A stretch of DNA of 64,000 nt from assembly GCF_003019035.1 (NCBI RefSeq), contig NZ_CP027447.1. One strand, written 5' to 3'. The position numbers and the translations under genes are program-made. Below, piece after piece: positions 8,348-63,238 of the stretch (position 1 is the first letter of the stretch; each line of letters begins with the position of its first letter). The notes under the pieces were generated by a model. It made no database searches. It was not told where the DNA came from and saw nothing but the letters and a program-made list of their open reading frames with translations. The DNA is from Escherichia coli (GTDB lineage: Bacteria > Pseudomonadota > Gammaproteobacteria > Enterobacterales > Enterobacteriaceae).

Positions 8348-8735
8348 TTTGCCGGATGGCGGGTAAGAGGCTAAGATCTGAATTGCTAGGTTCATTCGTT
8401 GGCCTCGGTTGATAGAAATATCGGTCGGGGCCTTCGTCTTTCTGATTCCCGGTTAGCCTGAAAACAGAAAGTCTCAGGCACCCGTGAGCATCCTATGTGG
8501 TTTCCTTAGGGACGAAAATAATCACCTGACGAAATTGCGTGCTGTTTTCCAGAATTTTTCGTCATTCGGGTTAGCCGGTTTAGCCATTCGTTACTCTCTT
8601 CATTCCAATAGCATTAATTTTCTCTGCAATAATTGTTGTAAAAATGTGACGCAAAGAGGTTTTTGGTCATAAGTAATTACCGTCAAGTGCCGATGACTTT
8701 CTATCAGGAGTAAACCTGGACGAGAGACAACGGTA

Positions 8736-10376
8736 ATGAATACAACTCCCTCACAGCGATTAGGTTTTTTGCATCACATCAGGCTGGTTCCGTTATTTGC
8801 CTGCATTCTTGGCGGTATCTTAGTTCTATTCGCATTAAGTTCTGCTCTGGCTGGCTATTTCCTCTGGCAGGCCGATCGCGATCAGCGTGATGTTACTGCG
8901 GAGATTGAGATTCGGACCGGGTTAGCGAACAGTTCAGATTTTTTGCGTTCAGCCCGGATCAATATGATTCAGGCCGGGGCAGCGAGTCGTATTGCGGAAA
9001 TGGAAGCAATGAAGCGAAATATTGCGCAAGCCGAATCGGAGATTAAACAGTCGCAGCAAGGTTATCGTGCTTATCAGAATCGGTCGGTGAAAACACCTGC
9101 TGATGAAGCCCTCGACACTGAATTAAATCAACGCTTCCAGGCTTATATCACGGGTATGCAACCGATGTTGAAATATGCCAAAAATGGCATGTTTGAAGCG
9201 ATTATCAATCATGAAAGTGAGCAGATCCGACCGCTGGATAATGCTTATACCGATATTTTGAACAAAGCCGTTAAGATACGTAGCACCAGAGCCAACCAAC
9301 TGGCGGAACTGGCCCATCAGCGCACCCGCTTGGGTGGGATGTTCATGATTGGCGCGTTTGTGCTTGCCCTGGTCATGACGCTGATAACATTTATAGTGCT
9401 ACGTCGGATCGTCATTCGTCCACTGCAACATGCCGCACAACGGATTGAAAAAATCGCCAGTGGCGATCTGACGATGAATGATGAACCGGCGGGTCGTAAT
9501 GAAATCGGTCGCTTAAGTCGTCATTTACAGCAAATGCAGCATTCACTGGGGATGACTGTAGGGACCGTTCGACAGGGCGCGGAAGAGATTTATCGTGGCA
9601 CCAGCGAAATTTCCGCTGGCAATGCGGACCTTTCATCTCGCACTGAAGAACAAGCGGCGGCAATTGAACAAACTGCCGCCAGCATGGAGCAACTCACTGC
9701 GACGGTGAAACAGAATGCGGATAACGCGCATCATGCCAGCAAACTGGCGCAAGAGGCTTCTATTAAAGCCTGCAATGGCGGGCAGACGGTTTCCGGTGTA
9801 GTAAAAACGATGGGCGCTATCTCCACGAGTTCGAAGAAAATTTCTGAGATCACCGCCGTCATCAACAGTATTGCTTTCCAGACGAATATTCTGGCACTGA
9901 ATGCTGCCGTTGAAGCCGCGCGAGCGGGTGAGCAAGGGCGTGGATTTGCCGTTGTCGCCAGCGAAGTACGGACACTCGCAAGCCGCAGCGCTCAGGCGGC
10001 GAAAGAGATTGAAGGCTTGATCAGTGAATCAGTCAGGTTAATTGACCTGGGATCGGATGAGGTGGCCACGGCCGGGAAAACCATGAGCACTATTGTTGAT
10101 GCCGTCGCGAGTGTCACACATATCATGCAGGAAATTGCCGCCGCCTCGGATGAACAAAGCAGAGGCATAACGCAGGTTAGCCAGGCGATTTCAGAAATGG
10201 ATAAGGTGACGCAACAGAATGCTTCTCTGGTAGAAGAGGCCTCAGCGGCGGCGGTGTCCCTTGAAGAACAGGCTGCACGATTAACTGAGGCGGTGGACGT
10301 ATTCCGTCTGAACAAACATTCTGTGTCGGCAGAACCTCGCGGAGCGGGTGAACCAGTTAGTTTCGCTACGGTGTGA
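8736..10376 (+). CDS. trg: Methyl-accepting chemotaxis protein III (ribose/galactose sensor)
   Basis: 546-aa ORF with two TM segments, HAMP region and conserved MCP signalling domain. Confidence 0.9.
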
Positions 10377-42803: not shown

Positions 42804-43623
42804 AAGGATAAATGGCGTTCTCTGTATTTATTCGCAATTATCTGTAGGACAAATATGGAGAGCTTGATGAGTCAGAGCTAAAACAGCAATTGATTAATAA
42901 ACATGTTGATTTATTCAAGAAAATGGATGTATTTTAAATATTGATTCTTAATATAACCTAATCAATAGATTATCACGTGAGAGCTGCACATTATTGGAGG
43001 GGCAGGGGAAAACACCATTTTGGGAACAATGCATCAGGTACTCTTACCACTGAAGCAAGATCATCCGGGCACCAGGTGGTGGTGCAGTGCTTTGGAAATG
43101 GTCCCCTCGGGGGAGTTGTCATTATTTTCTATGCTATTTGCTTATTATATTCATCAGGTGAATTTAATAAATTCCTAATTTGAAATATCCACTATTAAGC
43201 TAGTGTTTAACGACGTTAAGATGGCAATGTGCAGATCATGTTATCAGGGTGGGGCGGTAGCGTATATTCCTTATACAAACCATCATTCATTTCAATGATT
43301 GTTATTGAATTATTTATTGTTGTGAATAAAAAGACATTATGAATATTGGTTTGACTTTGCATATCAGGTTTTTTATTACTCGCTGTAATGTACGAGCCTG
43401 TCGTGAATAACGTCGAGAACCCATCCGTTGCGTTTGTGATTATTTTGTTGACTAAACAGACACCCGTTTCTCTGAAGTAAAATCCCAGACTAAATCATCA
43501 CATAACCATGACATTTTTCTGATATTCCCCGGTAACGCCAGATGTCGACTCGCTTATCTCATCCGCCCGACATGTTGTACATGCAATATGTGCGGATTAT
43601 TATTCATTTTCACGGAGGTTGCT

Positions 43624-45732
43624 ATGTCAACCGGATTACGTTTCACGCTGGAAGTGGACGGCCTGCCACCGGACGCGTTTGCGGTGGTTTCCTTTCATCT
43701 CACCCAGTCACTCTCTTCACTTTTTTCCCTTGACCTTTCTCTGGTCAGTCAGCAGTTTCTCTCCCTTGAATTTGCGCAGGTGCTGGACAAAATGGCCTAC
43801 CTGACGGTATGGCAGGGCGATGACGTACAGCGCCGGGTGAAAGGCGTGGTGACCTGGTTTGAACTCGGGGAGAACGACAAAAACCAGATGCTGTACAGCA
43901 TAAAGGTGCGCCCGCCGCTGTGGCGGGCAGGACTGCGTCAGAACTTCCGTATCTTCCAGAACGAGGACATCAGAAGCATCCTCGGCACCATACTGCAGGA
44001 AAATGACGTCACGGAGTGGAGTCCGCTGTTCAGCGAGCCGCATCCTTCCCGTGAGTTTTGTGTCCAGTACGGCGAAACCGATTACGATTTCCTGTGCCGG
44101 ATGGCGGCGGAGGAAGGCATCTTCTTTTATGAGGAGCACGCGCAAAAAAGTACCGACCAGAGCCTGGTCCTGTGCGACACCGTGCGTTATCTGCCGGAGT
44201 CCTTTGAGATCCCCTGGAATCCGAACACCCGTACCGAGGTGAGCACCCTATGCATCAGCCAGTTCCTCTACAGCGCACAAATCCGCCCATCTTCCGTGGT
44301 GACCAAAGACTACACCTTTAAACGACCCGGCTGGGCAGGGCGTTTTGATCAGGAAGGCCAGCACCAGGATTACCAGCGCACACAGTATGAAGTGTATGAC
44401 TACCCCGGACGTTTCAAGGGTGCCCACGGGCAGAACTTTGCCTGCTGGCAGATGGATGGCTGGCGAAACAACGCAGAAGTGGCGCGCGGAACAAGCCGTT
44501 CGCCGGAGATATGGCCGGGACGGCGAATTGCGCTGACGGGGCATCCGCAGGCGAACCTGAACCGGGAATGGCAGGTGGTGGCAAGTGAACTGCACGGCGA
44601 GCAGCCGCAGGCGGTGCCGGGACGCAGTGGTTCAGGTACCACGCTGAATAACCACTTTGCGGTAATACCGGCAGACAGAACATGGCGGCCACAGCCGTTG
44701 CTGAAACCGCTGGTGGACGGCCCGCAGAGCGCCGTCGTGACGGGACCGGCAGGAGAAGAAATCTTCTGTGATGAACATGGCCGCGTGCGGGTGAAATTTA
44801 ACTGGGACCGTTATAACCCGTCAAACCAGGACAGTTCATGCTGGATCCGTGTGGCACAGGCGTGGGCAGGCACCGGGTTTGGTAACCTGGCGATACCGCG
44901 TGTGGGTCAGGAGGTCATTGTGGACTTCCTCAACGGCGATCCGGACCAGCCGATTATTATGGGGCGCACCTACCACCAGGAAAACCGCACCCCCGGCAGC
45001 CTGCCGGGAACAAAGACGCAAATGACCATTCGTTCAAAAACCTATAAGGGCAGCGGGTTTAATGAACTGAAGTTTGACGATGCGACAGGGAAAGAACAGG
45101 TCTACATCCACGCGCAGAAGAACATGAACACCGAGGTGCTGAATAACCGCACCACGGATGTGATAAACAACCATGCTGAGACCATCGGCAACAATCAGGT
45201 GATTGCGGTTACCAACAATCAGATACAGACGGTGGGCGTTAACCAGATAGAGACGGTGGGCAGTAACCAGATCATTAAAGTGGGCTCTGTTCAGGTGGAA
45301 ACGATTGGACTTGTTCGTGCGCTGACTGTGGGCGTGGCGTATCAGACGACGGTAGGTGGCATTATGAACACCTCGGTGGCCCTGATGCAGTCCTCGCAGA
45401 TCGGTTTGCATAAATCGTTGATGGTCGGGCTGGGTTATGACGTCAAAGTCGGAAATAACGTTACCTTCACCGTTGGTAAAACGAAAAAGGATGATACCGG
45501 GCAGACCGCGATTTACTCCGCCGGTGAGCATCTGGAACTCTGCTGTGGTAAGGCAAGGCTGGTGCTGACTAAGGACGGACAAATTTTTCTCAACGGCACA
45601 AAAATTCATTTGCAGGGTAAGGAGCAGGTTAATGGTGACTCACTGTTGATTAACTGGAACTGTGCAGCCTCGAAATCCCCACCGAAGACCCCTGATGAAA
45701 AGCAGGATACGCCGGATATGAGAGAGTACTGA
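43624..45732 (+). CDS. vgrG: Type VI secretion spike protein VgrG (orphan, no other T6SS core genes in window)
   Basis: ORF 43588-45732; start at MSTGLRFTLEVDGL with SD ggagg upstream; gp27/gp5-like N-terminus and C-terminal beta-helical repeats (VIAVTNNQIQTVGVNQIETVGSNQIIKVG). Confidence 0.9.
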   Translation: MSTGLRFTLEVDGLPPDAFAVVSFHLTQSLSSLFSLDLSLVSQQFLSLEFAQVLDKMAYLTVWQGDDVQRRVKGVVTWFELGENDKNQMLYSIKVRPPLWRAGLRQNFRIFQNEDIRSILGTILQENDVTEWSPLFSEPHPSREFCVQYGETDYDFLCRMAAEEGIFFYEEHAQKSTDQSLVLCDTVRYLPESFEIPWNPNTRTEVSTLCISQFLYSAQIRPSSVVTKDYTFKRPGWAGRFDQEGQHQDYQRTQYEVYDYPGRFKGAHGQNFACWQMDGWRNNAEVARGTSRSPEIWPGRRIALTGHPQANLNREWQVVASELHGEQPQAVPGRSGSGTTLNNHFAVIPADRTWRPQPLLKPLVDGPQSAVVTGPAGEEIFCDEHGRVRVKFNWDRYNPSNQDSSCWIRVAQAWAGTGFGNLAIPRVGQEVIVDFLNGDPDQPIIMGRTYHQENRTPGSLPGTKTQMTIRSKTYKGSGFNELKFDDATGKEQVYIHAQKNMNTEVLNNRTTDVINNHAETIGNNQVIAVTNNQIQTVGVNQIETVGSNQIIKVGSVQVETIGLVRALTVGVAYQTTVGGIMNTSVALMQSSQIGLHKSLMVGLGYDVKVGNNVTFTVGKTKKDDTGQTAIYSAGEHLELCCGKARLVLTKDGQIFLNGTKIHLQGKEQVNGDSLLINWNCAASKSPPKTPDEKQDTPDMREY

Positions 45733-45798
45733 TCCCGTACCTGTTCAGTATTCAGTAACAAACAAGCATTAAAAATAAACAGAAGAAGGAATTGAATC

Positions 45799-45815
45799 AT
45801 GAGCGGAAAACCAGC
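45799..45815 (+). pseudogene. 5' stub of an rhs gene (start codon plus about 5 codons) truncated by an H-repeat element
   Basis: atgagcggaaaacc matches the first 14 nt of the intact rhs at 53550 (atgagcggaaaacccgcg...), followed directly by the H-repeat left end cagggaaagatca at 45816. Confidence 0.7.
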
Positions 45816-47106
45816 CAGGGAAAGATCATCAGAAGTACACTTTTTGTACTAAACAATTCGCATTTTATGTTTAAAAATTGAGATATTCCTCATTACCTGA
45901 AGCTGTTTTTTATTGCTTATACATGATCAAATACTCCTTACATAATTAAGGAGAACAAAATGGAACTTAAAAAATTGATGGAGCATATTTCTATTATCCC
46001 CGATTACAGACAAGCCTGGAAAGTGGAACATAAATTATCGGACATTCTACTGTTGACTATTTGTGCCGTTATTTCTGGTGCAGAAGGCTGGGAAGATATA
46101 GAGGATTTTGGGGAAACACATCTCGATTTTTTGAAGCAATATGGTGATTTTGAAAATGGTATTCCTGTTCACGATACCATTGCCAGAGTTGTATCCTGTA
46201 TCAGTCCTGCAAAATTTCACGAGTGCTTTATTAACTGGATGCGTGACTGCCATTCTTCAGATGATAAAGGCGTCATTGCAATTGATGGAAAAACGCTCCG
46301 GCACTCTTATGACAAGAGTCGCCGCAGGGGAGCGATTCATGTCATTAGTGCGTTCTCAACAATGCACAGTCTGGTCATCGGACAGATCAAGACGGATGAG
46401 AAATCCAATGAGATTACAGCTATCCCAGAACTTCTTAACATGCTGGATATTAAAGGAAAAATCATCACAACTGATGCGATGGGTTGCCAGAAAGATATTG
46501 CAGAGAAGATACAAAAACAGGGAGGTGATTATTTATTCGCTGTAAAAGGAAATCAGGGGCGGCTTAATAAAGCCTTTGAGGAAAAATTTCCACTGAAAGA
46601 ATTAAATAATCCAGAGCATGACAGTTACGCAATGAGTGAAAAGAGTCACGGCAGAGAAGAAATCCGTCTTCACATTGTTTGCGATGTCCCTGATGAACTT
46701 ATTGATTTCACGTTTGAATGGAAAGGTCTGAAGAAATTATGCGTGGCAGTCTCCTTTCGGTCAATAATAGCAGAACAAAAGAAAGAGCCAGAAATGACGG
46801 TCAGATATTATATCAGTTCTGCTGATTTAACCGCAGAGAAGTTCGCCACAGCAATCCGAAACCACTGGCACGTGGAGAATAAGCTGCACTGGCGTCTGGA
46901 CGTGGTAATGAATGAAGACGACTGCAAAATAAGAAGAGGAAACGCCGCAGAATTATTTTCAGGGATACGGCACATCGCTATTAATATTTTAACGAATGAT
47001 AAGGTATTCAAGGCAGGGTTAAGACGTAAGATGCGAAAAGCTGCCATGGACAGAAACTATCTCGCGTCAGTCCTTGCGGGGAGCGGGCTTTCGTAATCTT
47101 TCCCTG
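45816..47106 (+). mobile_element. H-repeat (ISAs1-family) element, copy A, 1291 bp
   Basis: Terminal inverted repeats cagggaaaga (left) and tctttccctg (right); encodes a 378-aa transposase; nearly identical to copies at 50594-51884 and 58348-59638. Confidence 0.85.
45960..47096 (+). CDS. ISAs1-family transposase (H repeat-associated protein, YdcC/YhhI-like)
   Basis: 378-aa ORF with SD aaggag; three near-identical copies in the window. Confidence 0.88.
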
Positions 47107-49748: not shown

Positions 49749-50004
49749 CAGGGCGGGATCGTGAATATTGTGATGCATATCACATGAACTCCTGGTTTTA
49801 ACTTATTATTTCGGTTAAAATTTAACCACTGAAATCATTAGGATTCGAGCAAAGGGACGGCATATGGATATTCAAAATTTACTGGATTATATTTCTATAA
49901 TTCCTGATTATCGTCAGCAAGGGAAAATAAGGCATAAATTGTCAGATATTTTATTGCTCACTATATGTGCTATTATTGCCGGTTCTGATGAATGGGAGGA
50001 TATT
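49749..50004 (+). mobile_element. Truncated H-repeat variant (fragment D): left end plus first about 47 codons of transposase
   Basis: IR-like cagggcgggatcgtga at about 49749; ORF start 49864 ([48 protein letters not shown]) interrupted by the next element. Confidence 0.65.
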
Positions 50005-50593
50005 CAGGGCAAGATCATGAAAATCGTGATGTAAATCACAATTTTCAACCTGGCTTTAACTCCTTCAGGAGATTAAAATTTAACCTATGGAATAACTAAA
50101 AAGATAAAAAAGGACGCCAGATGAGTATTCAAAGTTTGCTTGATTATATTTCAGTGTTCCCTGATATACGACAACAAGGAAAGGTTAAACATAAATTATC
50201 TGATATTTTGTTTCTCACCGTATGTGCAGTAATTGCAGGTGCCGATGAGTGGCAGGAAATTGAAGATTTTGGACATGAAAGACTGGAATGGCTAAAGAAA
50301 TATGGTGATTTTGATAATGGCATTCCGGTCGATGACACCATTGCACGCGTTGTGAGTAACATTGACAGTTTGGCCTTTGAAAAGATGTTTATTGAATGGA
50401 TGCAGGAGTGCCATGAAATCACTGATGGTGAAATTATAGCAATAGATGGAAAGACCATAAGAGGCTCCTTTGATAAGGGAAAAAGGAAAGGAGCAATCCA
50501 TATGGTGAGTGCATTCTCGACTGAAAATGGTGTTGTACTGGGGCAGGTGAAAACGGAAGCCAAAAGTAATGAGATTACAGCCATTCCAGAGTT
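50005..50593 (+). mobile_element. Truncated H-repeat variant (fragment E) inserted into fragment D and itself cut by copy B
   Basis: Left end cagggcaagatca at 50005; transposase N-terminal 158 codons (ORF 50121..., diverged from copies A-C) ending where the copy B left IR starts at 50594. Confidence 0.7.
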
Positions 50594-51884
50594 CAGGGAA
50601 AGATCATCAGAAGTACACTTTTTGTACTAAACAATTCGCATTTTATGTTTAAAAATTGAGATATTCCTCATTACCTGAAGCTGTTTTTTATTGCTTATAC
50701 ATGATCAAATACTCCTTACATAATTAAGGAGAACAAAATGGAACTTAAAAAATTGATGGAACATATTTCTATTATCCCCGATTACAGACAAGCCTGGAAA
50801 GTGGAACATAAATTATCGGATATTCTACTGTTGACTATTTGTGCCGTTATTTCGGGTGCAGAAGGCTGGGAAGATATAGAGGATTTTGGGGAAACACATC
50901 TCGATTTTTTGAAGCAATATGGTGATTTTGATAATGGTATTCCTGTTCACGATACCATTGCCAGAGTTGTATCCTGTATCAGTCCTGCAAAATTTCACGA
51001 GTGCTTTATTAACTGGATGCGTGACTGCCATTCTTCAGATGATAAAGACGTCATCGCAATTGATGGAAAAACACTCCGGCATTCTTATGACAAGAGTCGC
51101 CGCAGGGGAGCGATTCATGTCATTAGTGCGTTCTCAACAATGCACAGTCTGGTCATCGGACAGATCAGGACGGATGAGAAATCCAATGAGATCACAGCTA
51201 TCCCTGAACTTCTTAACATGCTGGATATTAAAGGAAAAATTATCACAACTGATGCAATGGGTTGCCAGAAAGATATTGCAGAGAAGATACAAAAACAGGG
51301 CGGTGATTATTTATTCGCTGTAAAAGGAAATCAGGGTCGGCTAAATAAAGCCTTTGAGGAAAAATTCCCACTGAAAGAATTAAATAATCCAGAACATGAC
51401 AGTTACGCAATGAGTGAAAAGAGTCACGGCAGAGAAGAAATCCGTCTTCACATTGTTTGCGATGTCCCTGATGAACTTATTGATTTCACGTTTGAATGGA
51501 AAGGTCTGAAGAAATTATGCGTGGCAGTCTCCTTTCGGTCAATAATAGCAGAACAAAAGAAAGAGCCAGAAATGACGGTCAGATATTATATCAGTTCTGC
51601 TGATTTAACCGCAGAGAAGTTCGCCACAGCAATCCGAAACCACTGGCACGTGGAGAATAAGCTGCACTGGCGTCTGGACGTGGTAATGAATGAAGACGAC
51701 TGCAAAATAAGAAGAGGAAACGCCGCAGAATTATTTTCAGGGATACGGCACATCGCTATTAATATTTTGACGAATGATAAGGTATTCAAGGCAGGGTTAA
51801 GACGTAAGATGCGAAAAGCTGCCATGGACAGAAACTATCTCGCGTCAGTCCTTGCGGGGAGCGGGCTTTCGTAATCTTGCCCTG
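50594..51884 (+). mobile_element. H-repeat (ISAs1-family) element, copy B, 1291 bp
   Basis: Same IRs and length as copy A. Confidence 0.85.
50738..51874 (+). CDS. ISAs1-family transposase (H repeat-associated protein)
   Basis: 378-aa ORF, a few substitutions relative to copy A. Confidence 0.88.
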
Positions 51885-51896
51885 CTTTGTAATGGT

Positions 51897-52079
51897 ATGG
51901 CAGGAGGATATGAATTTGCAGTAAGTAAATTTGGTCAGTCGGCCTATGATGCCGCACAGGAAAAAGCATTAAATAACTATATGGAATTTGAAATGTTAGA
52001 TTTATTACAAAGCATGGGAGAGAATGTCAATCCAGATGAATATAAGCAGGCGCATGATAGAGTTGTTAATCCAAATTGA
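51897..52079 (+). CDS. Small ORF (60 aa) starting just outside the copy B right end; possibly the 3' remnant of a toxin tip
   Basis: ORF 51852-52079 begins inside the IS right end; first ATG outside the IS at 51897 (MAGGYEFAVSKFG...); stop overlaps the next gene. Confidence 0.35.
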   Translation: MAGGYEFAVSKFGQSAYDAAQEKALNNYMEFEMLDLLQSMGENVNPDEYKQAHDRVVNPN

Positions 52080-52093
52080 ATGCAGAGGGGAGT

Positions 52094-52657
52094 ATGTTAT
52101 TAAAACTGATAATGTTATTTTCAATATTTTTTATCCCGTTTTTGGCAGGTTGCAGTATGTTTGATGATGTTTTTGAGAAAAACTACTCATTGAGTTCTGT
52201 CGCCAGTTTTCCAGATGACGTTGATGAATTAAAAGAAATATGGTTTTTTTGTGAAAGATGTTTAAGTGATGAGCAGTGCGAAAATCATGACATTAAACAA
52301 TGTAGAGATGTAACTATTCCCGGTAGAGATGAAGCATTAAGTAAAGCTGTAGGCAGAGCCAATGTCGAAGCTGTTTACTTTCTTGTTGATGTGGCAAAAA
52401 CTGATGTCAATGGTATTACAGGTAAATATAAGGAAACACCATTAATTATTGCTGCATATTATGGAACTCAAGCACATCAGGATATAGCTGAATTTTTGCT
52501 ATTGCATGGGGCAGATATTAATAAAACTTACCCAGCCATTGGGCGAAATCCTCTAGGTGTCGCCAGATGGAAGCATAATGTCGATTTCGTTAATTTTCTA
52601 CTGAAGCATGGTGCTGAACCAGCAGTACATATGGGGTCGATTGAGAATAAAGAGTGA
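52094..52657 (+). CDS. Ankyrin-repeat lipoprotein (candidate immunity protein)
   Basis: ORF 52076-52657; ATG at 52094 preceded by gagggga; lipobox FLAGC; ankyrin-like repeats (TPLIIAAYYGTQAHQDIAEFLLLHGADIN, NPLGVARWKHNVDFVNFLLKHGAEP). Confidence 0.7.
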   Translation: MLLKLIMLFSIFFIPFLAGCSMFDDVFEKNYSLSSVASFPDDVDELKEIWFFCERCLSDEQCENHDIKQCRDVTIPGRDEALSKAVGRANVEAVYFLVDVAKTDVNGITGKYKETPLIIAAYYGTQAHQDIAEFLLLHGADINKTYPAIGRNPLGVARWKHNVDFVNFLLKHGAEPAVHMGSIENKE

Positions 52658-53100
52658 GATTTAACAAAAATGCAATTCATGCTCTCGCCTTGGGTGACGG
52701 TATTGATACTGCTTTTAAGTGTTCAGGAAAAATGGAAAGTGGTAAACCCTTAAAATCTTCGGGCAAATGGGATTACTCTGTTGGTGGGACAAATGGTGCC
52801 TTTCTTTATCTTAAAGACTATTCAAATATTTTGACGGCTGGCCACACAGGAAATCTGGCAGTTACTTTTCTTGGAAGTTACAATGCTCAATATTCAATAA
52901 ACGGAAACTCTCTGGATGTAGTTGTAACAAATTCTTCAACGATACAATCAGCGACACATCCCCCAATCCTGGAGTATACAAAATGGTGGCAGGATAATAT
53001 TGGTAATCCTTTGGATAGAAAATTTCAAAAAGGTCCCACGTCCCCAAAAACACAAACCATAAATTTACACTTTGATTTGTCATGTGCGTGCAAAAAATGA
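52654..53100 (+). CDS. Hypothetical protein, translationally coupled to flanking genes
   Basis: GTG at 52654 overlaps the upstream stop; alternative ATG at 52732; stop overlaps the downstream ATG (atga) at 53097. Confidence 0.5.
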   Translation: MRFNKNAIHALALGDGIDTAFKCSGKMESGKPLKSSGKWDYSVGGTNGAFLYLKDYSNILTAGHTGNLAVTFLGSYNAQYSINGNSLDVVVTNSSTIQSATHPPILEYTKWWQDNIGNPLDRKFQKGPTSPKTQTINLHFDLSCACKK

Positions 53101-53480
53101 AAATTTTATTTATGTTATTATTAATTATCTTGAGTGGATGTGATGGCGAAAATGATGCCAAATTTGTTGGGCAATGGCTTGCTGATATTGATGGTGATAT
53201 AAAATCAGAATTGATCGTGAAGGCAAATGGAATTTTTTATTTCAAGAATATGCCTATGGAGACAGTTTGTCGCGAGGATAAAACATATAAGGCTAATTTT
53301 TTCGGGGATTGGACTATTAATATTGACAATAGGATTGATATTTCAATGGATAATGTTAATTCTGAACGGTGTAATATTCCATCCTCGTATTTAATTAATG
53401 GGTTTTATGATGGTGGATATTTTTTATGTCAGAAAGGATTGTCTTTTTTCCAGACGGACCTGATGAGCCAGGTAATATGA
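53097..53480 (+). CDS. Small lipoprotein (candidate immunity protein)
   Basis: ORF 53082-53480; ATG at 53097 (MKILFMLLLIILSGCDGEND) with lipobox LSGC; AT-rich. Confidence 0.6.
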   Translation: MKILFMLLLIILSGCDGENDAKFVGQWLADIDGDIKSELIVKANGIFYFKNMPMETVCREDKTYKANFFGDWTINIDNRIDISMDNVNSERCNIPSSYLINGFYDGGYFLCQKGLSFFQTDLMSQVI

Positions 53481-53549
53481 TCATTTATATTAAACAATGA
53501 AAGTATTGATCGTGAGCAGATTAAATATATAAGAAATTAAGGAGATACC

Positions 53550-56500
53550 ATGAGCGGAAAACCCGCGGCACGCCAGGGTGATGCCACGCTGAAAGGCGGT
53601 CCGATAGTCCAGGGGTCAGCGGGGGTGCTGATAGGCGCGCCCACCGGCGTGGCGTGCTCGGTGTGTCCGGGCGGGATGACTTCGGGCAACCCGGTAAATC
53701 CGCTGCTGGGGGCGAAGGTGCTGCCCGGCGAGACGGACCTTGCCCTGCCCGGCCCGCTGCCGTTCATTCTCTCCCGCACCTACAGCAGCTACCGGACGAG
53801 GACGCCTGCCCCGGTGGGCGTTTTCGGCCCCGGCTGGAAAGCGCCTTCGGATATCCGCTTACAGCTACGTGATGACGCACTGATACTCAACGACAACGGC
53901 GGGCGGAGCATTCACTTTGAGCCGCTGCTGCCGGGGGAGGCGGTGTACAGCCGCAGCGAGTCAATGTGGCTGGTGCGCGGTGGTAAGGCAGCGCAGCCGG
54001 ACGGCCACACGCTGGCGCGACTGTGGGGGGCGCTGCCGCCGGATATCCGGTTAAGCCCGCATCTTTACCTGGCGACCAACAGCGCACAGGGGCCGTGGTG
54101 GATACTCGGCTGGTCAGAGCGGGTGCCGGGTACTGAGGACGTACTGCCAGCGCCGCTGCCGCCGTACCGGGTGCTTACCGGGCTGGCGGACCGCTTCGGG
54201 CAGACGCTGACGTACCGGCGTGAGGCCGCCGGTGACCTGGCCGGGGAAATCACCGGCGTGACGGACGGTGCCGGGCGGAAGTTCCGTCTGGTGCTGACCA
54301 CGCAGGCGCAGCGTGCGGAAGAGGCCCGCACCTCTTCGCTATCTTCTTCTGACCGTTCCCGCCCTCTCTCAGCCTCAGCGTTCCCCGACACACTGCCCGG
54401 TACGGAATACGGCCCCGACAGGGGCATCCGTCTTTCGGCGGTGTGGCTGATGCACGACCCGGCATACCCGGAAAGCCTGCCCGGTGCGCCACTGGCGCGG
54501 TACACGTATACGGAAGCCGGTGAACTGCTGGCGGTATATGACCGCAGCAATACGCAGGTGCGCGCTTTCACGTATGACGCGCAGCACCCGGGCCGGATGG
54601 TGGCGCACCGTTACGCGGGAAGGCCGGAGATGCGCTACCGCTACGACGATACGGGGCGGGTGGTGGAGCAACTGAACCCGGCAGGGTTAAGCTACCGCTA
54701 TCTTTATGAGCAGGACCGCATCACCATCACGGACAGCCTGAACCGGCGAGAGGTGCTGCATACAGAAGGCGGGGCCGGGCTGAAGCGGGTGGTGAAAAAA
54801 GAACTGGCGGACGGCAGCGTCACGCACAGCGGGTATGACGCGGCAGGAAGGCTCACGGCACAGACGGACGCGGCGGGACGGCAGACAGAGTACGGTCTGA
54901 ATGTGGTGTCAGGCGATATCACGGACATCACCACGCCGGACGGGCGGGAGACGAAATTTTACTATAACGACGGGAACCAGGTGACGGCAGTGGTGTCCCC
55001 GGACGGGCTGGAGAGCCGCCGGGCGTATGATGAGCGGGACAGGCTGGTAACGGAGACATCGCGCAGTGGGGACGTCATCCGGTATGCTTATGATAATCCG
55101 CACAGTGAATTACCGGCCACGACAACAGATGCGACGGGCAGCACCCGGCAGATGACCTGGAGCCGCTACGGGCAGTTGCTGGCGTTCACCGACTGCTCGG
55201 GCTACCAGACCCGCTATGAATACGACCGCTTCGGCCAGATGACGGCGGTCCACCGCGAGGAAGGCATCAGCCTTTACCGCCGCTATGACAACCGTGGCCG
55301 GTTAACCTCGGTGAAAGACGCACAGGCCCGTGAAACGCAGTATGAGTACAACGCCGCAGGCGACCTGACTGCCGTTATCACCCCGGATGGCAACCGGAGT
55401 GAGACACAGTACGATGGGTGGGGAAAGGCCATCAGCACCACGCAGGGCGGGCTGACGCGCAGTATGGAGTACGATGCTGCCGGACGTATCACCACGCTGA
55501 CTAACGAGAACGGCAGCCACAGCGACTTTAGTTACGATGCGCTGGACCGCCTGATACAGCAGGGCGGCTTTGACGGGCGGACGCAACGTTATCATTATGA
55601 CCTGACCGGAAAACTCACGCAGAGTGAAGATGAGGGGCTTGTCATCCTCTGGTACTACGATGAATCGGACCGTATTACTCACCGCACGGTAAACGGTGAA
55701 CCGGCAGAACAGTGGCGGTATGACGGCCACGGCTGGCTGAGAGAAATCAGCCACCTGAGCGAAGGCCACCGTGTTGCCGTCCACTATGGCTATGATAATA
55801 AAGGCCGCCTGACCAGTGAGCGCCAGACGGTGCATCACCCGGAGACGGGAGAGCTGCTCTGGCAGCATGAGACCGGACATGCGTACAACGAACAGGGGCT
55901 GGCAAACCGCGTCACGCCGGACAGTCTGCCGCCGGTGGAGTGGCTGACCTATGGTAGCGGTTATCTGGCAGGCATGAAGCTGGGCGGGACGCCGCTGCTG
56001 GAGTTCACGCGCGACCGCCTGCACCGTGAGACGGTGCGCAGCTTCGGCAGCATGGCAGGCAGTAATGCCGCATACGAACTGACCAGCACATACACCCCTG
56101 CAGGCCAGTTACAGAGTCAGCACCTGAACAGCCTGGTGTATGACCGTGACTACGGGTGGAATGACAACGGAGACCTGGTGCGCATCAGCGGCCCGCGACA
56201 GACGCGGGAATACGGCTACAGCGCCACGGGCAGGCTGGAGAGTGTGCGCACCCTCGCACCGGACCTGGACATCCGCATCCCGTATGCCACGGACCCGGCG
56301 GGCAACCGGCTGCCGGACCCGGAGCTGCACCCGGACAGTACACTCACAGTGTGGCCGGATAACCGCATCGCGGAGGATGCGCACTATGTCTACCGCCACG
56401 ATGAATACGGCAGGCTGACGGAGAAGACGGACCGCATCCCGGCGGGTGTGATACGGACGGACGACGAGCGGACCCACCACTACCACTACGACAGCCAGCA

Positions 56501-57803
56501 CCGCCTGGTGTTCTACACGCGGATACAGCATGGCGAGCCACTGGTCGAGAGCCGCTACGTCTACGACCCGCAGGGACGGCGAATGGCGAAACGGGTATGG
56601 CGGCGGGAGCGTGACCTGACGGGGTGGATGTCGCTGTCGCGTAAACCGGAGGTGACGTGGTACGGCTGGGACGGCGACCACCTGACGACGGTGCAGACCG
56701 ACAGCACACGTATCCAGACGGTATACGAGCCGGGAAGCTTCACACCGCTCATCCGCATCGAAACAGACAACGGCGAGCGGGAGAAAACGCAGCGGCGGAG
56801 CCTGGCGGAGAAGCTCCAGCAGGAAGGGAGCGAGGACGGACACGGTGTGGTGTTCCCGGCTGAACTGGTGAGGATGCTGGACAGGCTGGAGGAAGAAATC
56901 CGGGCAGACCGCGTGAGCGGTGAAAGCCGGACGTGGCTTGCACAGTGCGGGCTGGCGGTGGAGCAACTGGAAAAACAGGTGGAGCCGGAATACACGCCGG
57001 AACGCACACTGCATCTTTACCACTGCGACCACCGGGGACTGCCGCTGGCGCTTATCAGCGAAGACGGCAATACGGTGTGGAGCGCGGAGTATGATGAATG
57101 GGGAAACCTGCTTAATGAGGAGAACCCGCATCATGTGTATCAGTCATACCGTCTGCCGGGGCAGCAGCATGATGAGGAGTCGGGGCTGTATTATAACCGG
57201 AACCGGTACTATGACCCGCTACAGGGGAGGTATATCACCCAGGATCCAATCGGGCTAAGAGGTGAATGGAATCTGTATAAATATCCATTAAACCCTGTTC
57301 GGTTTATAGATTCTTTGGGTTTAAAATTCCATGTTAACGGTGATCCAAGTGATTTTAATCAGGCTGTTGAGTATTTAAAACAAGATTCACGAATGAAAGA
57401 AGCTATAGATTTTTTATCAAGCTCTGAAGAAACCATAAAGATAGAGTATATTGATGAAACCGACGTTAGATTTGACCCGGATAAAATGACTATATATTGG
57501 AATGGTAAGGCGGCTTTATTTTGTTCAACTGATTTAAAATCGAAATCACAATCACCTGCATTAGGTTTGGGGCATGAGTTTGCTCATGCGCACTTATATC
57601 TTATTGATAAGGATGGTTATATGGGGCTTGTGAGACGTGCGGATGAACAATATAAAAATAAAGAAGAGGCGAGAGTTATCACTTTAATTGAACAGCATGC
57701 GGCGAAAACTTTAGGTGAGTGTACCAGAACAGCATATAATGGAGTGTATTATCGTGTGAATACACCAACGCAGACGGCAACAATAAATGGCACGCCAGAA
57801 TAG
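53550..57803 (+). CDS. rhs: Full-length Rhs polymorphic toxin: PAAR-like N-terminus, YD-repeat shell, DPxGL autoproteolysis motif, C-terminal HExxH-containing toxin tip
   Basis: 1417-aa ORF with SD aaggag; N-terminal [11 protein letters not shown]...CSVCPGG; RHS/YD repeats; PxxxxDPIGL at 57243-57257; C-terminal about 180 aa contain [11 protein letters not shown]. Confidence 0.92.
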
Positions 57804-57815
57804 TGAGATTTTTTT

Positions 57816-58265
57816 ATGATGAAATATTTGATGGTTTTATTGTCTCTATTTTCTGCTTCGGTATTGGGGATGGGGCGAGTGAATGAATTGTGTGGAATAG
57901 ATAGTGTGAAAACGATAGAAATAATTAATCTTCCAGCATATGTTACCACCTTAACCCCGCTTAGCAAGGAAGGTCTCAAGAGAATATACAAACATAAAGT
58001 GGTGGTGAATGGAGTTAGCGATTTTTATGCTGGTGAGATAATTGATTTATTGCAAATGAAGTATTTCAGGAAGGAGGAGAATAACGATATAAGATGGGGG
58101 GTTGACATTGTTTCGAATAAAAATAATAAATGTGAAATTTATTTTGATGGTTTTGGTGAATGTGGAAGTGTGAATGGCATTAACGTATGTTTTGAAAAAA
58201 ATGAAATGATAGATTGGATTAAAAAAGAAATCCCTTTTCTGTCGCAAGAAATAGGTGGTCTTTAA
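57816..58265 (+). CDS. Putative cognate immunity protein with N-terminal signal peptide
   Basis: 149-aa ORF 12 nt downstream of the rhs stop; hydrophobic N-terminus MMKYLMVLLSLFSASVLG; AT-rich. Confidence 0.7.
   Translation: MMKYLMVLLSLFSASVLGMGRVNELCGIDSVKTIEIINLPAYVTTLTPLSKEGLKRIYKHKVVVNGVSDFYAGEIIDLLQMKYFRKEENNDIRWGVDIVSNKNNKCEIYFDGFGECGSVNGINVCFEKNEMIDWIKKEIPFLSQEIGGL

Positions 58266-62014: not shown

Positions 62015-63238
<1,224 letters not shown>

Follow-up and report, generated by a model that had tools for sequence, protein, structure and literature searches.

Our analysis revealed that the stretch at positions 51885-53480 of the window (the whole 64,000 nt of Escherichia coli DNA analysed here) holds two toxin-remnant/immunity pairs, which lie between two tandem rhs genes of an E. 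coli vgrG–rhsE-type locus. With good confidence, we regard the region as the tail of a dead Rhs effector gene, in which toxin tips of two generations are preserved, each with its immunity gene. In fact the stretch is filled by four consecutive ORFs, all on the plus strand, with a GC content of 32-40% against about 67% in the rhs core 3' of it, and on the ORF strand 1434 of its 1596 nt belong to stop-free runs of 100 codons or more. Since none of 1000 dinucleotide-preserving shuffles equals this same-strand coverage (mean 19 nt, maximum 744), the ORFs are real. The first-pass annotation, made by a model from the sequence alone, was thus right in seeing a stretch of small AT-rich ORFs, and also right in the general kind when it spoke of an orphan immunity array. 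However, the stretch is neither a row of immunity genes nor a set of four genes as it had proposed, because ORF1 and ORF3 are gene fragments and ORF2 and ORF4 alone are intact. No housekeeping family was matched, and toxin-linked homologues were found for all four ORFs; neither of the two refuting outcomes named in the first-pass annotation was thus observed. Such orphan toxin/immunity debris is already known as a kind, and the members described here are new.

The origin of this arrangement can be read from the synteny with E. coli strain D8, where the gene order is vgrG, rhs1 with a phospholipase A2 (PLA2) tip, the ankyrin lipoprotein gene, the ORF3 remnant, ORF4 and rhs2. Positions 43000-45815 of the window are collinear with vgrG and the first 17 nt of the intact rhs1 of D8, positions 51885-54510 correspond to the D8 rhs1 3' end, the ankyrin gene, ORF3, ORF4 and the rhs2 5' end, and the block between them consists of the D8 rhs2 3' end, the rhs2 immunity gene and an IS1 fragment, with ISAs1 copies on both flanks. 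At the left edge of the block, the stranded 5' end of rhs1 (45799-45815, plus strand; 17 nt, ATGAGCGGAAAACCAGC, encoding MSGKP) is cut by the left inverted repeat of ISAs1-family (H-repeat) copy A (45816-47106, plus strand, 1291 bp); at its right edge lies ISAs1-family copy B (50594-51884, plus strand, also 1291 bp), whose right inverted repeat, AATCTTGCCCTG, runs up to 51884 and directly adjoins the toxin-tip remnant. As the synteny shows, codons ~6-1336 of rhs1 have been replaced in the window lineage by a 6-kb block with an ISAs1 copy at either end, and what remains of rhs1 is 17 nt of its start and the last 64 codons of its PLA2 tip. On the right, the array is bounded both in the window and in D8 by rhs2, which in the window is an intact gene for 1417 aa (53550-57803, plus strand) with a different tip that carries HExxH. 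The first-pass annotation had taken the position of the array upstream of an intact rhs as the product of a rearrangement. An H-repeat rearrangement did occur, but the position is native, for D8 has the same four ORFs between its tandem rhs genes; what the ISAs1 elements removed is the upstream rhs body. An apparent immunity array upstream of rhs is thereby explained as the downstream debris of a second rhs, destroyed by ISAs1 elements.

ORF1 (51885-52079, plus strand; 64 codons and a stop, beginning 'LCNGMAGGYEFAVSKFG') is the 3' remnant of the PLA2-type C-terminal tip of rhs1. It shows 97% DNA identity to D8 from position 9001 onward, the end of a 1400-aa Rhs protein. The earlier suggestions that this ORF begins at the edge of H-repeat copy B and is the stranded 3' end of a toxin tip are both confirmed, since the repeat ends at 51884, the toxin-tip homology begins at 51885, and the match is to the last 64 codons of the intact 1400-aa D8 Rhs; the ATG at 51897, where the ORF had been started, codes for a Met inside the tip. 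The D8 Rhs1 tip is a predicted phospholipase A2-type toxin. It matches Phospholip_A2_3 (PF09056, 5.3e-5) and PLA2G12 (PF06951, 3.3e-4) in Pfam, and it aligns to solved microbial PLA2s over the HD motif and the C-terminal CN..A..Y..AV.KFG helix; its catalytic motif is ACRNHDICYG, which is aligned in the match to 7ygk (E=0.008), and precomputed Pfam PLA2 matches are present on homologues of the tip. In having CxxHD and a C-terminal Cys-containing helix, it resembles the Tox-PLA2/Phospholip_A2_3 family of prokaryotic secreted PLA2s (Streptomyces 1kp4 and 1faz), although its scores are modest (E ~1e-4) and the window copy consists of the last helix region and tail. The first residue of ORF1 lies ~80 residues past the DPLG boundary of D8 Rhs1, after the catalytic His-Asp, so that the Ca-loop and the catalytic CxxHD are both missing. 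Because it retains only the last helix region of the PLA2 and a 45-aa tail, ORF1 cannot be an enzyme.

Next to it, ORF2 (52094-52657, plus strand) encodes an ankyrin-repeat lipoprotein of 187 aa. Two lipoboxes had been noted earlier in the array and both are present, FLAGC in ORF2 and LSGC in ORF4; in ORF2 the leader, MLLKLIMLFSIFFIPFLAGC, reads as a signal peptide with a basic n-region, a hydrophobic core and the lipobox L-A-G-C. The ankyrin repeats, also noticed before, are borne out by Pfam (Ank_2 at E=2.4e-11 and 1.1e-8, Ank_4 at 1.8e-5) and by ankyrin and DARPin chains in the PDB down to 1e-34, and the sole PADLOC match is the generic ankyrin similarity of ORF2. All three E. coli records with the gene have it intact, and in D8 it starts 14 nt past the stop of the intact PLA2-tipped rhs. 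Moreover, Salmonella salamae has a PLA2 tip and, directly after it, an ankyrin protein, each 51% identical to its E. coli counterpart; this ankyrin protein has an N-terminal hydrophobic leader ending in Cys, and the E. coli one is ~40 aa shorter at the C-terminus. Because this pair of tip and ankyrin protein recurs, ORF2 is probably a periplasmic immunity protein against the PLA2 tip. The pairing is not universal, since in Enterobacter mori the genes after a PLA2 tip of 74% identity encode a non-ankyrin lipoprotein and a protein of 313 aa. The repeats of the latter, judged by eye from the sequence, look Sel1-like.

A precedent for such a pair is provided by Enterobacter cloacae, where Tle6 lipases are always encoded with ankyrin-repeat lipoproteins, the Tli immunity proteins, of which the cytosolic form has an activating role (PMC11470151); likewise, both Tox-PLA2 and Imm-ank are included in the list of polymorphic toxin systems (PMC3482391). 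As in Tle6/Tli, a membrane-lipid-degrading toxin of a type VI secretion system (T6SS) would here be accompanied by an ankyrin-repeat lipoprotein that is expected in the periplasm, the likeness being one of repeat type; the best 60 of the 292 PDB matches of ORF2 are generic ankyrin and DARPin chains with no chain named Tli among them. In contrast, Tle6 is an alpha/beta-hydrolase lipase and a separate effector, whereas the tip discussed here is joined to an Rhs cage as a domain of the all-alpha PLA2 fold, and ORF2 is smaller than Tli, with 187 aa, about 3 repeats and a Cys-rich N-terminal segment. A PLA2-tipped Rhs with a small ankyrin lipoprotein would extend the ankyrin-immunity theme of Tle6/Tli to an unrelated enzyme fold.

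The second pair begins with ORF3 (52654-53100, plus strand). Though counted before in an array of immunity genes, it is a 5'-truncated orphan copy of an unnamed toxin domain, which is C-terminal in all of the 150 proteins listed for the family (138-2729 aa). In the family alignment ORF3 covers the C-terminal two thirds of the domain; the first 20-35 residues are gone, and with them the conserved N-terminal segment 'PWxxGWEWLTGTGPRxRxFxDGDxFTELLRxHxHIQ' and the near-invariant E9, W10, R17, D25 and H34. Since the stop of the ankyrin gene overlaps its first codon, ORF3 has no rhs core sequence. Both in the window and in a small cluster of Escherichia proteins it is an intact ORF of 148 aa, and it may have some residual function. 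In D8, however, a TGG>TGA nonsense change at codon 39 interrupts it and it is left unannotated, while the ankyrin gene and ORF4 are intact there. This lesion is more credible than the frameshifts of strain SCU-301, which we do not take as evidence of decay; each is a deletion of one base or of 3 nt, short homopolymer runs are the site of two, and in a record with many frameshifted genes they look like assembly errors. A distant blastn search with ORF3 and ORF4 through 5426 E. coli genomes returned the same three records and no intact ORF3-type tip.

Neither ORF3 nor ORF4 has any match in Pfam, NCBIfam or PADLOC, and none of 50 members of the ORF3-type family matches any Pfam family at E<=0.001. 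An AF2 model of the domain has a pLDDT of 86.8, its matches in AFDB are annotated 'RHS repeat-associated core', and the modelled fold appears to be without a convincing solved relative. Several candidate relatives were rejected. A colicin M-type lipid II phosphodiesterase would be recognised by the catalytic motif DxYDx5HR, which is absent from the family consensus, and the scores do not suffice for assigning a fold. Bte3/Bti3 of Bacteroides fragilis is no relative of ORF3/ORF4, for Bte3 is a 768-aa beta-barrel effector that has no relation to the ORF3-type domain. Ntox44 ('Bacterial toxin 44'), with its motifs DxK, GNxxxG and DxxxD (PMC3482391), gave none of the Pfam matches among the 50 members and only distant Foldseek matches (E ~1e-6, TM ~0.6).

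The partner of ORF3 is ORF4 (53097-53480, plus strand), a lipoprotein of 127 aa with the lipobox LSGC and Asp at +2. A word-index search with it finds three near-identical Escherichia proteins only, and its family becomes visible only when the neighbours of ORF3-type domains are collected and made into an HMM. In fact, the next gene after the domain in 33 of 38 genomic loci, from several phyla, encodes a protein of 127-161 aa, whose signal peptide ends in Cys and which carries a GxW...GxW pattern. The HMM built from these neighbours, with ORF4 left out, matched ORF4 alone among the 362 window ORFs (E=1.8e-12), and ORF4 retains the invariant or near-invariant C15, G25, W27, G70 and W72. ORF4 is, by its family membership, a putative neutraliser of the ORF3-type toxin. 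Lipocalin-like proteins are marked by a barrel of eight antiparallel strands and a GxW motif near the N-terminus. The predicted structure of ORF4 is a lipocalin-like beta-barrel, in a model with pLDDT 74 that falls near 50 in the C-terminal third; it has no detectable sequence relationship to the small beta-barrel lipoproteins of the lipocalin-like (calycin) kind, including periplasmic protease inhibitors of the Inh/APRin type.

As to the junctions, the first-pass annotation had chained the four ORFs by ATGA overlaps at three places into a translationally coupled array, which is overstated. The overlap at 53097-53100 between ORF3 and ORF4 is indeed ATGA, and it is the one conserved toxin/immunity overlap, since a 4-nt overlap can be read from the coordinates in ~15 of 32 related loci. 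At 52654-52657, however, the letters are GTGA, with the GTG merely the first possible start in the truncated reading frame of ORF3, and at 52076-52079 they are TTGA; there the ankyrin gene most credibly starts at ATG 52094, 14 nt past the ORF1 stop and with GAGGGGAG ahead of it, which RefSeq also uses in D8 and SCU-301. A scan of the array region found no more promoter-like or terminator-like sites than in shuffles, and no Rfam family was matched in it.

The known systems closest to this array are the orphan rhs-CT/rhsI and cdiA-CT/cdiI modules (Poole et al. 2011, PMC3150448). As in these, the fragments in the window are pieces of toxin tip whose relatives form the C-termini of full-length Rhs proteins in other places. 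A small immunity ORF of the same orientation comes after each piece, the whole belongs behind a vgrG-linked rhs, and the immunity genes are intact, with the toxin pieces devoid of delivery domains. The homology to full-length Rhs/YD C-termini is found for ORF1 in the D8 Rhs and for the ORF3-type domain on Rhs-core proteins of up to 2729 aa, and a cognate immunity ORF follows each fragment, as seen from the ankyrin gene in D8 and Salmonella and from the ORF4 family in its 33 of 38 loci. Orphan rhs-CT/rhsI modules were reportedly described by Jackson et al. in 2009 downstream of full-length toxin genes; the fragments do lie downstream of a full-length rhs in the same orientation in D8, and in the window that upstream rhs is reduced to 17 nt. 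In contrast to this likeness, a classical orphan still has part of the rhs core, the PxxxxDPxGL boundary included, as well as an entire toxin domain, and therefore can be reactivated, whereas neither ORF1 nor ORF3 retains these; each of the two has been cut within its toxin domain, and the parent rhs was deleted by ISAs1 elements.

It is for this reason that a reservoir role, in which ORF1 or ORF3 as a silent cassette would be recombined onto the intact rhs and switch its tip, a process reported for the Salmonella orphan rhs, deserves hardly any credence. Orphan modules have indeed been proposed as stores of toxin diversity (PMC3150448), a Salmonella study showed that expression of an orphan Rhs toxin is selected for (PMC3967940), and the array adjoins an intact rhs in the same orientation. 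Reactivation, however, requires rhs-core homology upstream of the DPxGL boundary as well as a complete toxin domain, and the array has neither, ORF1 being without the PLA2 active site and ORF3 without the N-terminal conserved segment; moreover, it lies upstream of the intact rhs, not downstream. The truncations also bear on the view that the four ORFs form a single operon with coupled translation, such as a poly-immunity island, in which all are functional and ORF1 and ORF3 would act, for instance, as immunity proteins, adaptors or regulators. The tight packing on one strand, the stop/start overlaps at two junctions, the RefSeq annotation of ORF1 and ORF3 as hypothetical proteins in SCU-301 and the intact 148-aa ORF3 of the Escherichia cluster all speak for it, but ORF1 matches the C-terminal end of a 1400-aa Rhs collinearly and its start coincides with an IS end, while ORF3 is two thirds of a domain that occurs in longer proteins in 147 of the 150 listed, without its near-invariant residues and prematurely stopped in D8. 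Such an operon is accordingly quite unlikely.

Another view concerns ORF2 only, namely that the ankyrin lipoprotein is an effector or host-interaction factor and its linkage to rhs incidental. Proteins with ankyrin repeats are typical of the effectors that intracellular bacteria secrete, a weak NCBIfam similarity to Legionella Dot/Icm ankyrin effectors exists (best E=3e-5, far below the curated cut-offs), and in E. mori other genes stand next to the PLA2 tip. This similarity, however, is that of generic ankyrin repeats, for which designed ankyrin proteins score far better, and the lipoprotein signal peptide argues for retention in the envelope; the 14-nt spacing in D8, the co-variation with the tip in Salmonella (51% for both) and the precedent of ankyrin lipoprotein immunity to T6SS lipases (PMC11470151) likewise stand against it, so that we consider it highly improbable.

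Returning to the remains of a dead Rhs effector gene, we propose that the ancestral layout was the D8 order. Before it, an rhs1 with an ORF3-type tip and ORF4 would have gained the PLA2-tip/ankyrin cassette by recombination, by which the old pair would be pushed downstream and ~20-35 codons clipped off the 5' end of the old tip; we infer this displacement from the truncation of ORF3. Afterwards, in the window lineage, the ISAs1-bounded 6-kb block replaced the rhs1 body, as the synteny shows. The toxin fragments left behind are expected to be inert, ORF1 without catalytic residues and ORF3 without a delivery domain and the conserved N-terminal segment. The two intact lipoproteins would be exported and lipidated, most likely at the periplasmic side of the envelope, where each may bind and block its cognate toxin when this is injected by the T6SS of a neighbour; the ankyrin solenoid would block a PLA2 that attacks membrane phospholipids, and the lipocalin-like barrel an ORF3-type toxin. 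In the window, the rhs1 promoter is now 6 kb of IS-bounded DNA away from the array, and because of this and since no promoter signal above chance was seen, both immunity genes may be silent. The locus illustrates how H-repeats and tip displacement remodel Rhs loci, with immunity genes outliving their toxins.

More generally, in each of the five phyla sampled, diderms as well as monoderms, the N-terminal leader of the immunity proteins of ORF3-type toxins ends in Cys, so that the target of the toxin would have to be outside the cytoplasm. We tentatively propose, with the balance of probability somewhat against it, that ORF3/ORF4 represents an uncharacterised multi-phylum toxin/immunity system with an extracytoplasmic target, of which the E. 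coli copy is a fossil and ORF4 a still-useful shield. If so, a cell-wall precursor or the membrane would be candidate targets, possibly with a new enzymatic mechanism. With neither a Pfam or NCBIfam model nor a solved structure for the unnamed toxin domain and its lipocalin-like lipoprotein immunity family, the pair is a candidate for biochemical study as a new envelope-targeting toxin. The ORF3-type family comprises 539 clusters at 50% identity, from Bacteroidota, Actinomycetota, Chloroflexota, Verrucomicrobiota, Bacillota and rare Proteobacteria. Its carriers are Rhs proteins, where the core often ends directly upstream of the domain, and by AFDB annotation also proteins of the ALF-repeat and WXG100 types; in one case the domain is encoded within a T6SS locus of the Bacteroidales type, where an Hcp-domain gene precedes it. 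The domain is common in gut and soil Bacteroidota.

Four ORFs follow one another on the plus strand at 51885-53480, and the array is shown to be made up of the remnant of a phospholipase A2 (PLA2) tip (ORF1, 51885-52079), a probable ankyrin immunity gene (ORF2, 52094-52657), the remnant of an older tip (ORF3, 52654-53100) and the immunity gene of the latter (ORF4, 53097-53480). Its GC content is 32-40%, and it is flanked by an ISAs1-family H-repeat on one side and by the GC-rich intact rhs on the other. Stop-free runs of at least 100 codons span 1434 of the 1596 nt of the coding strand, and since not one of 1000 dinucleotide-preserving shuffles approaches such coverage, the ORFs are not due to chance; no promoter signal stands out in a scan of the array. 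The lipoboxes reported in the first-pass annotation (FLAGC and LSGC) are both present, and so are its ankyrin repeats (Pfam Ank_2, E=2.4e-11), while of its three atga-type overlaps only that at 53097-53100 is an ATGA, the others being GTGA (52654-52657) and TTGA (52076-52079). The ankyrin gene more credibly starts with the ATG at 52094, which lies 14 nt beyond the ORF1 stop, is preceded by GAGGGGAG, and is the RefSeq choice in two other strains.

The window corresponds to the E. coli locus running from yncG, yncH, vgrG and rhs to yddH and nhoA. The 1.6-kb array is very rare, as a search of 5426 complete E. coli genomes by megablast and by sensitive blastn gave 3 records only. SCU-301 has the same layout as the window, and strain D8 has the undamaged order: vgrG, an intact 1400-aa Rhs protein (rhs1), the ankyrin gene beginning 14 nt past the rhs1 stop, ORF3, ORF4 and a second rhs (rhs2). 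In a block-by-block comparison, 43000-45815 corresponds to vgrG of D8 followed by the first 17 nt of rhs1, where ATGAGCGGAAAACCAGC can still be read at 45799-45815, and 51885-54510 corresponds to the D8 stretch that begins with the final 195 nt of rhs1 and runs into the beginning of rhs2. The intervening 6-kb block is bordered by two ISAs1 copies of 1291 bp each (45816-47106 and 50594-51884) and holds what in D8 is the rhs2 3' end, with the immunity gene and the IS1 fragment that come after it; the second copy closes with its right inverted repeat at 51884, and homology to the toxin tip sets in exactly at this point. The parent rhs is thus shown to have been gutted by IS-bounded DNA. The position upstream of the intact rhs had been read as a sign of rearrangement, but it is native, because the array lies between two tandem rhs genes in D8; the H-repeats took away the body of rhs1.

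The tip of D8 Rhs1 after the DPLGQ boundary carries WGYGCGD and ACRNHDICYG, matches Pfam Phospholip_A2_3 (5.3e-5) and PLA2G12 (3.3e-4), and is alignable to solved microbial phospholipases A2 across the HD motif and the C-terminal CN..A..Y..AV.KFG helix; its few homologues have the same precomputed Pfam hits. Judging from its sequence this tip is a phospholipase A2, and Tox-PLA2 is a recognised domain of polymorphic toxins (PMC3482391). The suggestion that ORF1 is the stranded 3' end of a toxin tip is borne out by its match to the end of this very tip, from 'LCNGMAGGYEFAVSKFG' onwards, and the ATG at 51897 where the ORF had been started is a Met codon inside the tip. Only the last helix region and a 45-aa tail are left, the active site being lost, and therefore ORF1 is an inert remnant.

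The ORF2 protein has a classical lipoprotein leader, a Cys-rich segment and about three ankyrin repeats. It is probably the immunity protein for the PLA2 tip, because its gene is the first after the PLA2-tipped Rhs in D8 and because in Salmonella enterica subsp. salamae the gene directly after a PLA2 tip encodes an ankyrin protein whose hydrophobic N-terminal leader ends in Cys; tip and ankyrin protein are each 51% identical to their counterparts, so that toxin and partner have diverged together. The pairing is not universal, since the neighbours downstream of a 74%-identical tip in Enterobacter mori are another lipoprotein and a protein of 313 aa with repeats that look Sel1-like by eye. A T6SS-delivered phospholipase acts on membranes from the periplasmic side, and an exported, lipid-anchored inhibitor fits this. 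Among systems that have been studied, the nearest analogue is Tle6/Tli of E. cloacae, where an ankyrin-repeat lipoprotein neutralises a T6SS lipase (PMC11470151), although the fold of the Tle6 enzyme differs from that of the PLA2 tip. The E. coli protein (187 aa) ends about 40 residues short of the S. salamae one (229 aa with a Cys-rich tail, 656-1345 of that locus), and both genes may have been shortened in the event that joined the ankyrin gene to what is left of ORF3. The residue at +2 past the lipobox Cys is Ser in the ankyrin protein (52151-52156) and Asp in ORF4 (53139-53144). In E. coli this residue governs outer- versus inner-membrane destination of lipoproteins by the Lol sorting rule, under which the ankyrin protein would go to the outer membrane and ORF4 would be kept in the inner membrane.

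ORF3 has no match in Pfam, NCBIfam or PADLOC, and clear homologues exist: an HMM search of 1.84 billion representative proteins found the domain in 539 clusters. It is C-terminal in all 150 proteins among the matches listed (138 to 2729 residues), many have the end of an Rhs/YD core directly upstream, and AFDB matches are annotated as 'RHS repeat-associated core', 'ALF repeat' or 'WXG100' proteins. Moreover, one member lies inside a Bacteroidales-type T6SS locus, directly behind an Hcp-domain gene. For these reasons of position the domain is a polymorphic-toxin tip; none of 50 family members matches any Pfam family, and sequence search detects no solved structure for it. The complete domain starts with 'PWxxGWEWLTGTGPRxRxFxDGDxFTELLRxHxHIQ', a segment absent from ORF3, whose homology begins near domain residue 35. 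Its frame opens only 3 bases ahead of the GTG overlapping the ankyrin stop, which means that it contains no part of an Rhs core. The D8 copy has a nonsense change (TGG>TGA) at codon 39 and is unannotated. The missing 5' segment and this nonsense codon make ORF3 a truncated, decaying toxin remnant rather than an immunity gene, and the array is therefore not the row of orphan immunity genes that the first-pass annotation had envisaged. In two Bacteroidales-type T6SS loci (8699-9193 and 8699-9196) the lipoprotein that follows the ORF3-type effector has 'LDAWRNTVGKKINESFETG' at its end, which duplicates the C-terminal segment of the effector itself and looks like a scar left by recombination in tip or immunity swapping.

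Direct searches with ORF4 gave near-identical Escherichia proteins only, and its family was assembled instead from genes adjoining ORF3-type domains, scanning one genome per species. The resulting 38 loci are from Bacteroidota, Actinomycetota (Leifsonia, Cryobacterium), Chloroflexota, Verrucomicrobiota, Bacillota and one proteobacterial MAG. In 33 of them the gene that follows codes for a protein of 127-161 aa whose signal peptide ends in Cys and which has the conserved pattern '(F/I)(V/I)GxW ... DG(T)F ... GxW', and by our own reading of coordinates this gene overlaps the toxin stop by 4 nt in about 15 of 32 loci. An HMM of these neighbours, built with ORF4 excluded, matches ORF4 at E=1.8e-12 and no other of the 362 stop-to-stop ORFs of the window, and ORF4 retains the invariant or near-invariant Cys15, Gly25, Trp27, Gly70 and Trp72. 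The linkage, the match and these residues together place ORF4, as predicted from sequence comparison, in the cognate immunity family of the ORF3-type toxin, and the ATGA at 53097-53100 is the usual toxin/immunity junction of this family. As the immunity proteins of both diderm and monoderm lineages have an N-terminal leader that ends in Cys, the target of the toxin would be extracytoplasmic.

We infer that the ORF3/ORF4 pair was the earlier tip of rhs1, and that recombination bringing in the PLA2/ankyrin cassette pushed it aside and clipped it; tip displacement is the standard model for Rhs and CDI loci (PMC3150448). Both toxin pieces would now be inert, and the two lipoproteins, if transcribed after the loss of the rhs1 transcription unit, may still shield the cell from neighbours firing these two toxins. 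The array belongs to the known class of orphan toxin/immunity modules. However, classical reactivatable orphans retain the core/DPxGL boundary and a complete toxin domain, which the array does not, and a set of degraded remnants whose immunity genes have survived is the better description. Nothing in it is categorically new; new within known kinds are the Rhs-PLA2/ankyrin-lipoprotein pair and an uncatalogued toxin/lipocalin-like immunity family common outside Enterobacteriaceae, and the unnamed ORF3-type toxin family is where experiments would pay off.

Several neighbouring features can be added. The segment 47107-49710 (+), with an rhs 3' fragment (core end and Cys-rich tip), a 212-aa ORF downstream and an IS1 fragment, is collinear with the D8 rhs2 end and now lies between the two ISAs1 copies in place of the rhs1 body; further H-repeat fragments follow at 49864-50630. 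The SCU-301 record flags many genes as frameshifted (vgrG, three ISAs1 copies and both rhs genes), and deletions of a single base or of 3 nt occur within its ORF3, two of which fall in short homopolymer runs; assembly errors are the probable cause, not biology. The intact rhs (53550-57803, +) has a tip with an HExxH motif (GHEFAHAH) and a weak Pfam Peptidase_M91 match (E=0.086), and a 149-aa ORF starting 13 nt past its stop (57816-58265, +) is probably its immunity gene. Between nhoA and yddE, a 326-aa ORF (62035-63015, -) is collinear with a SCU-301 gene that RefSeq names 'IS110-like element IS621 family transposase'.
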